Source of the DNA: a virus
Lineage: Duplodnaviria > Caudoviricetes
IMG/VR virus record: IMGVR_UViG_3300020042_004075
Span: 1-25,140 of that record
Length of the DNA stretch: 25,140 nucleotides
Direction: 5' to 3' (one strand)
Positions 4,357 to 11,928 of the stretch are shown piece after piece (the first letter of the stretch is position 1; each line of letters opens with the position of its first letter). The notes below the pieces were generated by a model. That model had not been told where the DNA came from. It saw only the letters and a list, made by a program, of their open reading frames with translations, and made no database searches. The translations under genes were made by a program, and so were the position numbers.

Positions 4357-4736
4357 AAGCGAACCGCTTCATCCACGTCCAAGTAACCTACTAACTTGTA
4401 AACCTTATCCTTGTTCTCAAATTCAGTAGACACTGGCATCACTTGTGTATACCATTTAGGTTCTGGCAGATCCATAAGATCAAAAGAATATATACCAAGT
4501 GGAGTCGAGTTGATGTAGTACGGGATCAGATCTCGTTCTGCTGCCTGAGTGATGAGCTTGCGGTACTTAATCTCTTCGATAAGTAGGGTGGGATAGTGAG
4601 TCTGTCTGCATTTAAGTTCGATGTAGTGGGCAGCCTTCTCACTAGTGCAGTCATAAGTATCATAGATCCCAGGACTTTTAACCAAGTCAGGGTAGAGACT
4701 GCCTTTGAGATAATTAAATAACTCTTCTTCTTTCAT
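4353..4736 (-). CDS. PD-(D/E)XK restriction-endonuclease-like protein
   Basis: N-terminal E helix, YD...IELKCR. Confidence 0.65.
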   Translation of the reverse strand: MKEEELFNYLKGSLYPDLVKSPGIYDTYDCTSEKAAHYIELKCRQTHYPTLLIEEIKYRKLITQAAERDLIPYYINSTPLGIYSFDLMDLPEPKWYTQVMPVSTEFENKDKVYKLVGYLDVDEAVRL

Positions 4737-5365
4737 CGCCAGGGTGTCTCCCCGCCTAGTTCATCCTGCAATCTGCGAAGAGCGTTGGTGCATCTACGAT
4801 CAGCAGTGGACACTGCACACTCTAGGAAGGCAGCGATCTGTTGCAGCGTAGCGTTATCGTAGTGGCGCATACGCAGTAATTCTTGATCCTTCTGATCTAG
4901 TTTAAGATAACACTTCTTAATATCTATCAGGCTAGCAAGCAGGTTGCCACCTTCTGATGGGCTAGATGATCCGCGTGGCTGTCCATCGTTAATCATCTCC
5001 TGCATCTGCTCTAGCACTGTGCCATCTATGATGGATGTAATAACAAATGGCAGTAGCTGACCAAGGGTAAAGGTCTGGTAATACACTTCATCGTTAGTCT
5101 GATAGCCAGACTTGTTAGCCTTCTCCTTGCGTGCATAGCGTTCGACTGCACGCTTCATCTGCCAAGCGATACGGCTTTGGTTATATTCTAATTGTTTAGG
5201 ATCTTCAACGCTCATCTGCTCAGTGATGTAGGCGTTACGCGTAACACCCCACGCAATACACTCCTGAGTAACATCTTCTCGCTCTACCCAATGCTTGTAG
5301 CGCCGGTGTACTGCATAAGCAACAGACGGCGCTAACTCATAGATAATCGGATGCAGCTCAGTCAC
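4733..5365 (-). CDS. sigma-70-like factor (region 2 / region 4 HTH)
   Basis: EREDVTQE region-2-like; L..KDQELLRMRHYDNATLQQIAAFLECAVSTADRR region-4 HTH; start moved to GTG 5365 overlapping the upstream stop. Confidence 0.75.
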   Translation of the reverse strand: MTELHPIIYELAPSVAYAVHRRYKHWVEREDVTQECIAWGVTRNAYITEQMSVEDPKQLEYNQSRIAWQMKRAVERYARKEKANKSGYQTNDEVYYQTFTLGQLLPFVITSIIDGTVLEQMQEMINDGQPRGSSSPSEGGNLLASLIDIKKCYLKLDQKDQELLRMRHYDNATLQQIAAFLECAVSTADRRCTNALRRLQDELGGETPWR

Positions 5366-5759
5366 AATCAGTAACTTCAACCTCTGGCCATACGCCATCT
5401 AAGACCATCATCGCAATAGCAGAGTAGTTCAATAGATCGAGGAATGAATCACGCAAGGACTCGTTGCTAGGTTGCACATCAGAGTCAACCAAGTTGTTGA
5501 TGCGAGCTATCTTATCCCACATACGTACACGCAGACCATTAAGTGGTCCACCTGGTGAGTGAGCAATATTCTTTGGGCCGTAATCGTGATGCTTACGGAT
5601 AAGTAAGTTACCTGCTGCATCCATAATACGCCAGACATCTGAAGCAAACTCAGGGTTTACCTTGTCGGTGTAGGGCGCAGTAGAACTGTCTCTGTCTCCG
5701 TATTGATCTCTAGGATCTGGAAGCCCATATGCTGCAAAGTCTGTATCATCTGTTGCCAT
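5358..5759 (-). CDS. nucleotide modification associated domain 1 (Nmad1/DUF1599-like) protein
   Basis: KHHDYG...RMWDKIARINNL...ESLRDSFLDLLNYSAIA. Confidence 0.8.
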   Translation of the reverse strand: MATDDTDFAAYGLPDPRDQYGDRDSSTAPYTDKVNPEFASDVWRIMDAAGNLLIRKHHDYGPKNIAHSPGGPLNGLRVRMWDKIARINNLVDSDVQPSNESLRDSFLDLLNYSAIAMMVLDGVWPEVEVTDCD

Positions 5760-7773: not shown

Positions 7774-8628
7774 CTATTGTTGGACTATGTAATCGCCTTG
7801 ATATCCACTTACTGCATCGTTTCTTAGCATAACACCCCACGCATTTTTATCCGATATCTGACAAGCAGCGTAGTTTACGAACAGTGTTACGTAGTCCTTG
7901 CCATCTGCAGCGTGTGGCCCAAAGCGGTTCTTTACTGCAGCTACCTTGAGTTCACCATTGGATGGGTCATAGCCCAGCGTTAGGATCAGCGCCGGTAGTT
8001 GACTTACCTTGCCGTGAATGGCACGTCTAGCAGGTGGATTAGATGGTGATCCGTACTCACTCTGCTCAGATACGTGGTGTAGCACAAGTACGCAGGCTTC
8101 AGTCTTACGTGCCATATCGTGCAGCTCCATCATTATCGCACGCAAGCCAGCCCACTCATTGTCAGTCTCTGCTGCTACGTTCATTAAGTTGTCTATCACA
8201 ATTAACTCTGGAGCCTTGCCATAGAGTTCTACGTATGCCCTGATCTCTAACTCGATATCGTCCAGTGATGGTGATGAATCAAAGACCCATTTAATATGTT
8301 CTAGTTTTCCAAAGTGTTTATCGTAGTAGTGCTTATCCTTAGATAAGTTTAGCTCCACCGATACCTGCGAGTGACCAGATGCAACAGATGCTGCTCTCAT
8401 CATCACGGTTGTAGTATCGGTATCTGCTGAGAAGAAGAGCGTTGATACATTTGCTTTCATCGCATAGACGAGAGCAAACATAGACTTACCAGCGTTAGGG
8501 GCCGCAGCTACCATACAGACTTGTCCTCGCCGGAACTTGATCTGCTTTAGTGATAGCCCCTGCCACACGTCAGGTAGTGGTGTTGCCTTGGTAAGCACCC
8601 CACTCCAAGCGCGTGATAAGTCAAGCAA
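7774..8628 (-). CDS. DnaB/RecA-family helicase (ATPase domain only)
   Basis: Walker A AAPNAGKS, Walker B LIVIDNL, KNRFGP. Confidence 0.9.
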   Translation of the reverse strand: MLDLSRAWSGVLTKATPLPDVWQGLSLKQIKFRRGQVCMVAAAPNAGKSMFALVYAMKANVSTLFFSADTDTTTVMMRAASVASGHSQVSVELNLSKDKHYYDKHFGKLEHIKWVFDSSPSLDDIELEIRAYVELYGKAPELIVIDNLMNVAAETDNEWAGLRAIMMELHDMARKTEACVLVLHHVSEQSEYGSPSNPPARRAIHGKVSQLPALILTLGYDPSNGELKVAAVKNRFGPHAADGKDYVTLFVNYAACQISDKNAWGVMLRNDAVSGYQGDYIVQQ

Positions 8629-8887
8629 TGCCTTCCCCCTTTAATGTTATACGTCGTTTACGTCTGATTAGCCTGCGTTCACCTTCAGCAACGCCACCCC
8701 AGATACCGTGCATCTCATTTTGTATTCCCCATTCAAGACACTCTGATTGATGTGGACACCTTCTACAAATTGATTTAGCCATAACCATCTCGGTACTGTT
8801 AGAACTTCCAGCTACCTTTTCAGGAAACCAGAAGTCGCCACCGACTGTCGCGCAAGCAGGATTCTCATAGAACCTTGGCTCGCGCAC
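8621..8887 (-). CDS. whiB: WhiB-family Fe-S transcription factor
   Basis: Four Cys (C...CRRC.....C), FWFPEK, GIWGG turn, basic ERRLIRRKRR tail. Confidence 0.95.
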   Translation of the reverse strand: MREPRFYENPACATVGGDFWFPEKVAGSSNSTEMVMAKSICRRCPHQSECLEWGIQNEMHGIWGGVAEGERRLIRRKRRITLKGEGIA

Positions 8888-9265: not shown

Positions 9266-10222
9266 TTATTTTCCTCCGCTAGGTTTGATGTTTAGTCTTG
9301 CAGTTTCCTCACCTACACTTACTGGGACAAAACCAATAAGTTCTTTTACTTTTTCTTTGTCAACTGTCTCACGACCTTTAACCTTTGTCCAACTGATTTC
9401 AATACCACTGGCTGTGACACCAACGGTTCCCTCAAATGAACTCTTGATTGAATCTCTTTCAGTTTCCAGATCTTTAATCTTACGATCTAATTGTAGAAAG
9501 TGCAGAGCGTTCTTGTCAATCTGCTCGTCCTCAATGATTACTTCACTCAGGACGATACGTTCTTTTTTTAAGCCAACACAACCCATCATTCCTGATGCGT
9601 CGTAGTACTGGCAGTAGTGCTTACAGAATGATTCATCCTTCTCAGGTTCTGGAGCTGACTCCATTGCCTTGATCTCAGTTAACCACTCCATAGCCTCTAG
9701 TGCAACATCTTCATCGTAAGGTTCTGAGTGAACCTTGACATCCTTCTCAGCACCATCACGAGCTATAGCAACTAGGTTTACAGTGTTAACTGTGTGACCA
9801 TTCTGCGATAGCAAGTATCCATAGATCTGTACCTGCCAACGCTGTTGCTTTGATGGGAAGTAAGAAAGGTTCTTGACCTTGCTTGTCTTCCAGTCAATGA
9901 CTGCACCAGTACTAGGTATAAACAAGTCCACGTGTGCTTTCATATCACCGTGTGCTACTGCAGTTTCAACTAAGTAATCTTTACCATCTGGATCTAGGTG
10001 ACCGATAGCATCTTCGATTGCAGCGTGGATAGCAGTACCCATAATTGCTGCCAGCTTTGACTGGTTCTCATTAGTCTCTGGCTGACCATTCAATCGGTAC
10101 CAGACCTTACGGCGACATCCACCTATCTCTGATGGACCTACCTGTGTCTGAGTACTGCGATCACGAGAGGCATCCTTAGCGTGGAGCACTGTTAATAGCA
10201 GTTCCTTGGGATCTGTAATCAT
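9266..10222 (-). CDS. Cas4/RecB-like PD-(D/E)XK exonuclease
   Basis: GPSEIGGC, GTAIH, HVD, IDWKT, QVQIY, C-terminal CKHYC...C (Fe-S ligands). Confidence 0.9.
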   Translation of the reverse strand: MITDPKELLLTVLHAKDASRDRSTQTQVGPSEIGGCRRKVWYRLNGQPETNENQSKLAAIMGTAIHAAIEDAIGHLDPDGKDYLVETAVAHGDMKAHVDLFIPSTGAVIDWKTSKVKNLSYFPSKQQRWQVQIYGYLLSQNGHTVNTVNLVAIARDGAEKDVKVHSEPYDEDVALEAMEWLTEIKAMESAPEPEKDESFCKHYCQYYDASGMMGCVGLKKERIVLSEVIIEDEQIDKNALHFLQLDRKIKDLETERDSIKSSFEGTVGVTASGIEISWTKVKGRETVDKEKVKELIGFVPVSVGEETARLNIKPSGGK

Positions 10223-10514: not shown

Positions 10515-11069
10515 TTATCCTTTCTCTTGAGTAACTAATTGAATCGGAGGACAGGTGTTCACGTCAAGTACCGACGCGATCTTTATTGCGCGTTCTGCTA
10601 CCACCTTAGACATAAGCAGAGACTTGTAGGAACCAGGCTTGAGTGAGTAGAGGTAGCCCAGAGCAAACGCTCCACCGCTACCTGCTGCAAAGAGTCCACG
10701 CTCGCTGGCGTTGAATGACAGATCTGATCCTATAGAAAATAACATCCCATCAAAGGCGATGAGGTAAGCAAAGCTGGCTTCCTTATCGGATGGATCGTAT
10801 CCATTATCCTTAAAGGCAGCGTAGATACTTGGCAGTACTCGCTTACCCATCCACTCGACAGGATCGTAGCTCTTATACGTTGGTGGTTTCCAATTAAAGG
10901 CGAGGATATCTCCAGGTCGTGAGTCGCCTGTGATACCTATCAGGTACTCACCTACGCTTACGATCTTAGGTGTCTGGGTAGATATGATGCGCTGATCGTT
11001 ATCGGTGATCTGCGAATCAGCAGCGAGTACTACGAAGTCAGGTCCTTGGATACCTACCAGAGTTGTCAT
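10515..11069 (-). CDS. proteasome beta subunit / HslV-like Ntn-hydrolase
   Basis: M-TT N-terminus (Thr1), AADS (Asp17), PKI (Lys33-equivalent), ITGD, AGSGG.FALGYL, ASVLDVNT. Confidence 0.85.
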   Translation of the reverse strand: MTTLVGIQGPDFVVLAADSQITDNDQRIISTQTPKIVSVGEYLIGITGDSRPGDILAFNWKPPTYKSYDPVEWMGKRVLPSIYAAFKDNGYDPSDKEASFAYLIAFDGMLFSIGSDLSFNASERGLFAAGSGGAFALGYLYSLKPGSYKSLLMSKVVAERAIKIASVLDVNTCPPIQLVTQEKG

Positions 11070-11093
11070 TGGCAGATCATATCACGGCGTGTC
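11069..11093 (-). promoter_or_regulatory. leaderless extended -10 promoter with GACACGCC box
   Basis: GACACGCC-G-TG-A-TATGAT-ctgcca-ATG: -10 hexamer at -12..-7 from the start A, no SD, GACAC at -24..-20. Confidence 0.75.
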
Positions 11094-11105
11094 TATATCG
11101 GAGAT

Positions 11106-11132
11106 TAGACATCGGGCATTACAATATGAGCC
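11106..11132 (+). promoter_or_regulatory. divergent promoter with GACAT box and TACAAT -10
   Basis: GACAT 11108-11112, TACAAT 11120-11125; same 12-nt offset as the opposite promoter. Confidence 0.55.
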
Positions 11133-11188
11133 GTAGGCGAATTAAACAGACGGCCCTTATCGGGCCGAGGAGTAGGAGGCCCGACACT

Positions 11189-11449
11189 ATGCGGCTCCGT
11201 CTACCAACCCTGCAATCTTTACGATGGCGCAGAAGTACCCTTCCTGAGCCTTACGGGGCCGATCTGAGGGCTTTAGGACCGATCCACGCCTGTACTTGTG
11301 GCTGCACTATGTTCAACATTATGGCAGCCTTTGAAGATTATGACATAGCCTGGTGGCACCTCGACGGAACCTGTGCCAACTGCGGAAATCTGGTAACAAT
11401 CCCTTGCCCTGTGGATAACCCTGATGGACCACAAGCTAACGGATATTGA
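11189..11449 (+). CDS. Cys-rich zinc-ribbon protein
   Basis: In frame with ORF 11063..11449; start at ATG after AGGAGG; HACTCGC...CANCG...C. Confidence 0.7.
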   Translation: MRLRLPTLQSLRWRRSTLPEPYGADLRALGPIHACTCGCTMFNIMAAFEDYDIAWWHLDGTCANCGNLVTIPCPVDNPDGPQANGY

Positions 11450-11774
11450 TGAGTCTGCCAGGACTGGCACCTGCTCAATCTGTGGTCACACTAAGATCAA
11501 ACTCAGAGACAAGAACAATCCCCTCTCTAGTAGGTATCGGTGCAAGACAGTCTATAAACGTAACATCATCAAGAACCAGTACCCGTACGCAGTCCACAAG
11601 AAGGATGCCTGCGAGCACTGTGGTTTCATCCCAGTCCACAGCAGTCAGCTTGACGTTGACCACATTGACGGCAACGGTAGGAACCACGACCCGTCTAACC
11701 TACAGACGCTCTGTGCTAACTGTCACCGCTTAAAGACACACTTGCATAACGATAACGACTCTGGTATTTTTTAA
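11424..11774 (+). CDS. HNH endonuclease
   Basis: CEHC...LDVDHIDGNGRNHDPSNLQTLCANCH; extra N-terminal CSIC. Confidence 0.9.
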   Translation: MDHKLTDIDESARTGTCSICGHTKIKLRDKNNPLSSRYRCKTVYKRNIIKNQYPYAVHKKDACEHCGFIPVHSSQLDVDHIDGNGRNHDPSNLQTLCANCHRLKTHLHNDNDSGIF

Positions 11775-11810: not shown

Positions 11811-11853
11811 AAACCTCTACAGACTTCGCGGCCTGTAGGGGTTTCGTTCTTTT
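11811..11853 (+). terminator. intrinsic terminator of HNH unit
   Basis: AAACCTCTACAG / CTGTAGGGGTTT 12-bp stem, then CGTTCTTTT. Confidence 0.7.
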
Positions 11854-11860
11854 CAGACAT

Positions 11861-11904
11861 AAAAAAAGAAGCCCCCCACCCAGGATTTCTCCTGAGCAGG
11901 GGGC
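11861..11904 (-). terminator. intrinsic terminator of late operon
   Basis: 15-bp stem GCCCCCTGCTCAGGA-GAAA-TCCTGGGTGGGGGGC followed by TTCTTTTTTT. Confidence 0.85.
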
Positions 11905-11928
11905 CATTGCCTCGCGCTTATGGGCTAA

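Follow-up and report, generated by a model that had tools for sequence, protein, structure and literature searches.

Genes and promoter signals at the divergent junction

The window (the whole stretch of DNA analyzed, 25,140 nt) is a 25-kb virus record in which a junction separates a leftward operon from two rightward genes. The operon includes genes for a peptidase, an exonuclease, WhiB, a DnaB-like helicase, a resolvase, and parts of a primase, and a sigma-like gene. Its first product is an HslV/proteasome-beta-like peptidase (positions 10515 to 11069, minus strand; PF00227, phrog_1040), which appears to open a leaderless transcript and whose partner ATPase was not seen among the ORFs scanned. 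The WhiB-family protein (8621 to 8887, minus strand; PF02467, E value 9e-15) belongs to a phage-specific clade, and the operon also includes a Sigma-70 region-4 protein (4733 to 5398, minus strand; PF04545), a possible rival reader of the box described below. On the other side of the junction lie a small cysteine-rich, putative zinc-finger protein (11189 to 11449, plus strand), with a homologue in phages F5 and E7, no Pfam or PHROG match, and only unnamed clusters in the Atlas, and an HNH endonuclease (11424 to 11774, plus strand; PF01844). A hairpin with a T run at 11811 to 11853 (plus strand), read by eye and missed by the hairpin scan (it has a loop of 10), is the candidate end of the rightward transcript, and a terminator-like hairpin at 11870 to 11905 (minus strand) ends the converging minus-strand (late) genes. 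An Rfam scan of the window matched no family. Among the 22 window ORFs scanned, which were part of the total, no WhiA family was matched, in line with the earlier note on this DNA, which saw no whiA in the window.

The phage family has relatives among the viruses of freshwater actinobacteria. Of the window ORFs, 23 (one of them an opposite-strand shadow) have a match in F5, a phage in culture on Planktophila LanE-43 (PMC10202952), and because of this kinship with F5/E7 the likely hosts of the window phage are Nanopelagicales. Searches elsewhere gave five peptidase relatives in INPHARED, all distant; 19 distant matches of the phage WhiB in genome_contigs, without a host clue; and seven sequencing runs matching small shares of the window, the four examined being contigs from which no transcript start, strand, or level can be read. 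Relatives for the comparison were collected by protein only (223 entries, of which 216 had the rightward gene and 215 the 200 nt upstream of it), giving 138 distinct promoter regions. Geometry was counted over 110 cores in which our scripts placed both -10 elements, the relatives being non-independent lineages. The counts come from protein-led sets, and scans that were motif-led, limited in rows, or limited in spacing served as leads.

Leftward transcription would start at a promoter (PL) with an extended -10 element, TG-n-TATGAT (11076 to 11084, minus strand), 6 nt before the start codon. The minus-strand letters read previously, GACACGCC (11093 to 11086), G, TG (11084 to 11083), A, TATGAT (11081 to 11076), 6 nt, and the ATG at 11069, are all in place, and the proposal of a leaderless extended -10 promoter is supported by the relatives: TG is found in 91 of the 110 cores, and the start codon, as called by script, follows the -10 by 6 or 7 nt in all 110. 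Some relatives (L039, L041 to L043, L064, L071, L075, L089, and L158) have extra genes, several of them nuclease-like, right behind the leaderless PL start, and the promoter stays.

Rightward transcription is assigned to a second promoter (PR) with the -10 TACAAT (11120 to 11125, plus strand), 26 nt after GTGTC. A consensus -35 is absent in the window genome, and the start probably lies near 11132 to 11133. The assignment is backed by 15 relatives in which the zinc-finger gene begins 5 nt behind this -10. The ATG at 11126 was rejected as a start codon; it lies upstream of the expected transcription start and reads ACG, TGC, or TCG in 11 of 138 regions. The rightward leader (11126 to 11190) is conserved, with one to three hairpins, is wholly lost in one subgroup, and has no Rfam match. 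The arms of its GC-rich hairpin at 11151 to 11167 (plus strand) co-vary in distant relatives, as read by eye; consensus folding of 10 close leaders gave a different fold with no compensatory pair and did not recover this hairpin.

Conservation and geometry of the WhiA-type box

Between PL and PR lies a WhiA-type box, GACACGCCG (11085 to 11093, minus strand; family consensus CGACACGCCG), one site common to both promoters. The word matches the published WhiA consensus over 9 to 10 bases; ChIP and in vitro selection gave GACACGCC, and an earlier study CGACACGCCGn (PMC13473873). In the window GACACGCC alone is not beyond chance (one found, mean of 0.49, 41 of 100 shuffles), and its combination with an extended -10, a pattern chosen after seeing the arrangement, occurred in none of 100 shuffles. 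We count the box as real because conservation, not rarity in the window, decides the matter. GCGTGTC is present in 136 of the 138 distinct promoter regions; the remaining two (L340 and L341) have it in place but turned around. Elsewhere in the same loci this 7-mer occurs at 0.126 per kb, about the chance rate, and there is one copy per genome region. Among the 136 relatives with the box, 124 have GACACGCC and 106 CGACACGCCG. Across 22 diverse representatives the flanks are conserved at 0.27 to 0.64, and the two bases after the anchor at 0.91 and 1.0. In unrelated higher-GC viral contigs (L085, L103, L107, L109, L110, and similar) the same 10-mer stands 12 nt before an extended -10-like hexamer.

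The earlier note had named two boxes, of which only one is real. The second, GACAT at 11108 to 11112 on the plus strand, is present as described, 7 nt before TACAAT at 11120 to 11125, but a GACA-N-7 nt-(-10) arrangement is found in 1 of 110 cores, that of the window, and the word was not counted as a site. Similarly, the letters of the TGTCTA/TAGACA inverted repeat are as given, but 1 of 138 distinct regions has it. The comparison across relatives that had been proposed as a check was run, and GACAC proved conserved, but neither the fixed leftward spacing nor the GACAT twin did. What stands is a selected WhiA-type site flanked by promoter signals that point away from each other; the named pair does not.

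The distance from the box to the left -10 varies from 7 to 15 nt over the 110 cores (sd, 2.29), with 48 cores at 7 nt, 12 at 9, 31 at 11, 7 at 12, 11 at 13, and 1 at 15, contrary to a fixed position at -24 to -20. The distance to the right -10 is 25 to 30 nt (sd, 1.15). The box overlaps the PL core in every one of the 110, and the flipped version remains adjacent to it, an overlap that may be forced by compactness, since the two -10 elements are only about 40 to 47 nt apart. On the other strand, 87 of the 110 do have a genuine second GACAC, at 4 nt from the first in 45 and at 8 to 11 nt in 42. In these 42 wider pairs the second site lies 25 to 28 nt before the left -10, the mirror of the first. 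The idea of two inverted sites thus holds for many relatives, though not for the pair that had been named.

In the solved complex, base recognition falls to WhiA, WhiB forms the link to sigma-A, and the box lies upstream of the -35; in general it may be on either strand and its spacing varies (PMC10243135). By our counts, 38 nt separate it from the -10 both in sepX and in the dnaE1 template. The earlier note had placed activation in the spacer between -35 and -10, which is wrong, since the solved box is upstream of the -35 and the sepX and dnaE1 boxes are, as counted here, 38 nt from the -10. A forward box at about 38 nt, the sepX-type arrangement, is not what PL has (7 nt in the window, 7 to 15 nt in the family), and for PR it is approached only by the two flipped relatives, where the box is forward and 41 to 42 nt before the right -10. 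PR of the window falls instead into a reverse-box class, with GTGTC at 26 nt in the window, 25 to 30 nt in the family, 26 to 29 nt in a sister clade, and 24 to 28 nt in hosts. This class (host mcdR/bldO, phoH-type, and Microbacteriaceae rRNA promoters, with GTGTC adjoining the -35 position, 24 to 29 nt ahead of the -10) was defined here from sequence, and its activation by WhiA is a presumption. Box orientation was described as unlinked to the sign of regulation (Bush 2013). In a published list, 7 of 25 exact forward motifs lie 15 to 27 nt from a start site; these are candidates and were counted against the present interpretation.

The same module in cultured phages and hosts, and the phage WhiB

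In F5 and E7 a terminator-like run is followed by a reverse box with a -10 at 29 nt, which points toward an AT-rich tract and then the replication operon. The whiB of these phages is in a different operon on the opposite strand, outside the one led by the box. A protein-led collection of the sister clade (80 loci, less 16 too short and 10 duplicates) left 54, of which 45 have the reverse core and nine lack it. The -10 follows at 26 to 29 nt in 40 (one of these, mis-called by the script, was corrected by eye), and a TTG -35 at 17 nt is frequent. The transferable unit is thus the reverse box plus its -10. A motif-led scan gave 49 loci, 42 of them F5-type; at least two (L646 and L648), read by eye, have an extended -10 also on the other strand. 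Most sister-clade loci, like F5/E7, have no gene diverging from the module. Behind the box-led -10 of F5-type loci (L624, 32650 to 32830; L627 to L674) there is a very AT-rich stretch of about 100 nt with a small GC hairpin, resembling an origin or an Lsr2 site.

All five Nanopelagicales genomes examined encode WhiA and a canonical WhiB2. The 8-mer is rarer in hosts than its reversed control (39 versus 112), and 20 of 30 fetched sites were non-coding by an ATG-only test; the 10-mer occurs in 57 of 61 family genomes versus 40 of 61 for the control. In the five hosts the 10-mer has nine matches, located ahead of nrdR, of a DUF4193 gene, and of a hemolysin-III gene. At the DUF4193 gene (L570 to L573, around 1500), the match of which is presumably Rv2699c, the WhiA word lies, as read by eye, inside a GGAAT-N18-GTT promoter that we take to be ECF-sigma-like. 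Another -10-like hexamer follows it at about 37 nt, which makes this a host example of one WhiA word between two promoters. The reverse core stands 28 nt before the -10 at mcdR/bldO in all five hosts (one by script, four by eye) and 24 to 26 nt before it at five sites of phoH type, of which three were identified from the ORF and two from the context. A motif-led scan of GTDB returned, among the best 120 of about 550, mainly mcdR/bldO and rRNA promoters with the reverse layout. A forward box right before an extended -10, the layout of PL, showed no excess in the five hosts (2 matches versus 7 in the control). No box was found at Nanopelagicales rRNA promoters (0 of 60, several of the 450-nt segments ending near the -35) or at Nanopelagicales whiB2 promoters. 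A McdR-WhiB2 loop appears to be present in Nanopelagicales, since five of five whiB2 promoters (L549 to L553) carry a McdR/BldO-like palindrome over the -10. At Microbacteriaceae rRNA promoters (L397, L401, and others) a reverse WhiA word stands 2 to 3 nt before TTGAC.

Published data on these genes are mixed. A WhiA footprint is described for nrdR of Streptomyces (PMC3781837). In depletion data, loss of either WhiA or WhiB2 lowers mcdR and phoH2. WhiA binds at whiB2, which goes up (log2 +1.49) when WhiA is depleted; the response is weak or absent for nrdR (+0.33/-0.08), Rv2699c (+0.09/-0.38), and the hemolysin-III gene, which was unchanged (PMC13473873). WhiA/WhiB2 also activate dnaB and dnaE1 in vitro. 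Published activation of mcdR does not test the reverse geometry, because the mycobacterial mcdR box that was assayed is forward, and we found no case, structural or experimental, in which a reverse box activates at a spacing of 25 to 30 nt.

The gene whiB is an actinophage marker with a largely unknown role in phages (PMC8612146). The protein of the window has the hallmarks of the Wbl family, with four cysteines (invariant in 22 of 22 members) and the G(I/V)WGG turn, and scores about equally against the solved WhiB (48.3 bits) and WhiB1 (47.4 bits). Nine phage WhiBs form a clade of their own (support, 94/92), with 27 to 39% identity to host WhiB2 and 21 to 29% to other host Wbl classes, and keep 2 to 5 of 23 WhiB2-diagnostic residues. 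They lack the near-invariant core and the FPEKGGSTREAK loop of the WhiB2 subfamily and do not group with host WhiB2; the DNA-contacting loop K37-K45 of WhiB, invariant in hosts, differs in length and sequence in the phage versions. The FPEK motif from which membership of the WhiB2 class had been proposed is there, and in 11 of 22 family members, but the class assignment fails on the diagnostic residues and the separate clade.

Inside the exonuclease gene, upstream of whiB, there is a box-free internal promoter candidate of consensus type, TTGACA-18-TACAAT (9490 to 9519, minus strand), retained in 55 of 99 distinct segments. Its synonymous codons rank 1 of 19, 2 of 41, and 3 of 26 in a post hoc comparison; held by synonymous codon choice, it would serve the gp49-like, whiB, and helicase genes. 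The positive feedback proposed earlier is not supported: the box overlaps the core of the operon promoter, whiB has this box-free candidate, and in F5 whiB is outside the box-led operon. A self-amplifying loop through the box is unlikely, since the protein falls outside the WhiB2 class and its gene has a box-free promoter candidate.

A predicted WhiA/WhiB2 site between PL and PR, and its alternatives

Host WhiA, together with host WhiB2, very probably binds the box between the back-to-back promoters. Bound there, just upstream of the -35 position of PR, the pair would probably activate PR, and there is a somewhat better than even chance that it represses PL, since the leaderless promoter of the peptidase-exonuclease-replication operon has its core overlapping the box and would be occluded. 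With the site empty, PL would fire from its extended -10. To the whole reading, in which one box both activates PR and blocks PL, we give an even chance; that PR of the window serves just two small genes was counted against it. The phage would thereby read the WhiA/WhiB2 (division) state of its host, and cell-cycle sensing of this kind is plausible. The weakest step is the part of the phage WhiB, which likely binds sigma-A region 4 but has lost the WhiB2 signature and would therefore more likely clear the site by displacing host WhiB2 than stand in for it; other phage Wbls bind sigma-A region 4 (PMC13013590), and displacement of WhiB2 was described for the WhiB of mycobacteriophage TM4 (PMC8612146).

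Several other explanations fit part of the data. WhiA/WhiB2 may activate PR only, with the PL overlap a packing by-product without regulatory effect, as the modules of F5/E7 and most of the sister clade that lack a divergent gene and the leftward drift from 7 to 15 nt would allow; we consider this improbable, given an overlap kept in 110 of 110 cores, a flipped box that still abuts, and a 17-nt WhiA footprint (PMC10243135) that would cover the extended -10 region. The model of the earlier note, in which spacer-bound WhiA and the phage WhiB activate the leftward replication/whiB operon in positive feedback, can draw on a box that lies on the PL non-template strand, on 7 nt as the commonest spacing (48 of 110), on a phage WhiB nearer to WhiB2 than to other host Wbl classes, and on an F5-type box that leads the replication operon together with the in vitro activation of dnaB and dnaE1. 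A mode like sigma adaptation would be conceivable for it because the WhiA recognition domain resembles sigma region 4. A spacing range of 8 nt, or the greater part of a helical turn, a box that flips in two genomes, a solved geometry of 38 nt, the lack of any host excess of the PL layout, the lost WhiB2 signature, and the box-free promoter candidate upstream of whiB all make it quite unlikely.

We attach a similarly low probability to the module acting mainly at a replication origin, with WhiA-activated transcription into a hairpin-bearing or AT-rich stretch licensing phage replication. The very AT-rich stretch of about 100 nt with its small GC hairpin, before any gene in F5-type loci, and the small hairpins retained in window-type leaders would suit it; at 11100, however, the window has neither an AT-rich tract nor a skew turn, and 15 relatives have no leader. 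Least probable of all is that WhiA plays no part and the word serves as a -35-like element for a phage protein, for instance the one with sigma-70 region 4. The gene of the latter is present in the window and in F5, and region-4 domains do read GACA-like words (PMC10243135), but a sigma element would neither flip nor vary by 8 nt, there is one copy per genome region, and the word matches the host consensus over 9 to 10 bases and is in use at host promoters.

A more elaborate version of the preferred reading, that of one box activating PR and blocking PL, can also be drawn. In phage lambda, OR is one operator region between back-to-back promoters that activates one and blocks the other. In a lambda-like switch of this kind, each of two inverted WhiA sites would turn on the promoter farther from it and shut off the nearer one, and the phage WhiB would flip the switch by taking sigma-A from host WhiB2, so that a whole phage family would gate its replication operon on the division state of the host. 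The fully mirrored pair is found in 42 of 110 relatives and is reduced to one site in the window, and we regard this version as unlikely. Unlike in OR, the sites here would be those of a monomeric host factor, and a phage repressor was not identified here.

Among known systems, the closest are the sigma-A promoters of Actinobacteria co-activated by WhiA/WhiB (WhiB2), namely sepX of S. venezuelae (PDB 8DY7 and 8DY9, PMC10243135), those of the mycobacterial regulon (PMC13473873), and mcdR (PMC9040748), which have the same word and, like PR, a site upstream of the -35 position. As in sepX, the window promoter has no consensus -35 and the host has both factors; unlike sepX, the box is on a phage, is reverse at 25 to 30 nt rather than forward at 38 nt, and is common to divergent promoters, binding here being predicted. 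Sites of a host cell-cycle regulator at phage promoters are likewise described for CtrA in phages of Alphaproteobacteria, as "lytic deferment" (PMC9437464), in another phylum, with another regulator, and as dense clusters with binding shown, whereas here one or two predicted sites lie at one junction and a relative of the protein that partners the regulator is among the phage's own genes. The TM4 WhiB is a further phage Wbl possibly acting on the host WhiB2 circuit, but it belongs to the WhiB2 subfamily, whereas that of the window belongs to its own clade with a variable loop; the accessible parts of the TM4 accounts describe no phage WhiA site (PMC8612146, PMC13013590). Our literature search, which took in few subscription papers, gave no paper on WhiA sites in phages among the matches listed. 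New here are the single junction found across the family, the occasional flips of its box, the pair of mirrored sites, and the connection with a phage and host in culture.

A conserved WhiA-type site heading a replication operon gives the role of phage whiB a concrete target. The reverse box adjoining the -35 would be a second WhiA promoter geometry common to phages and hosts, if activation from it is correctly presumed, and the natural flips and mirror copies are features for which any structural model must account. Because the cultured pair of Planktophila LanE-43 and F5/E7 carries the module, it is testable now. Should the lambda-like switch be true, it would explain why freshwater actinophages carry whiB.
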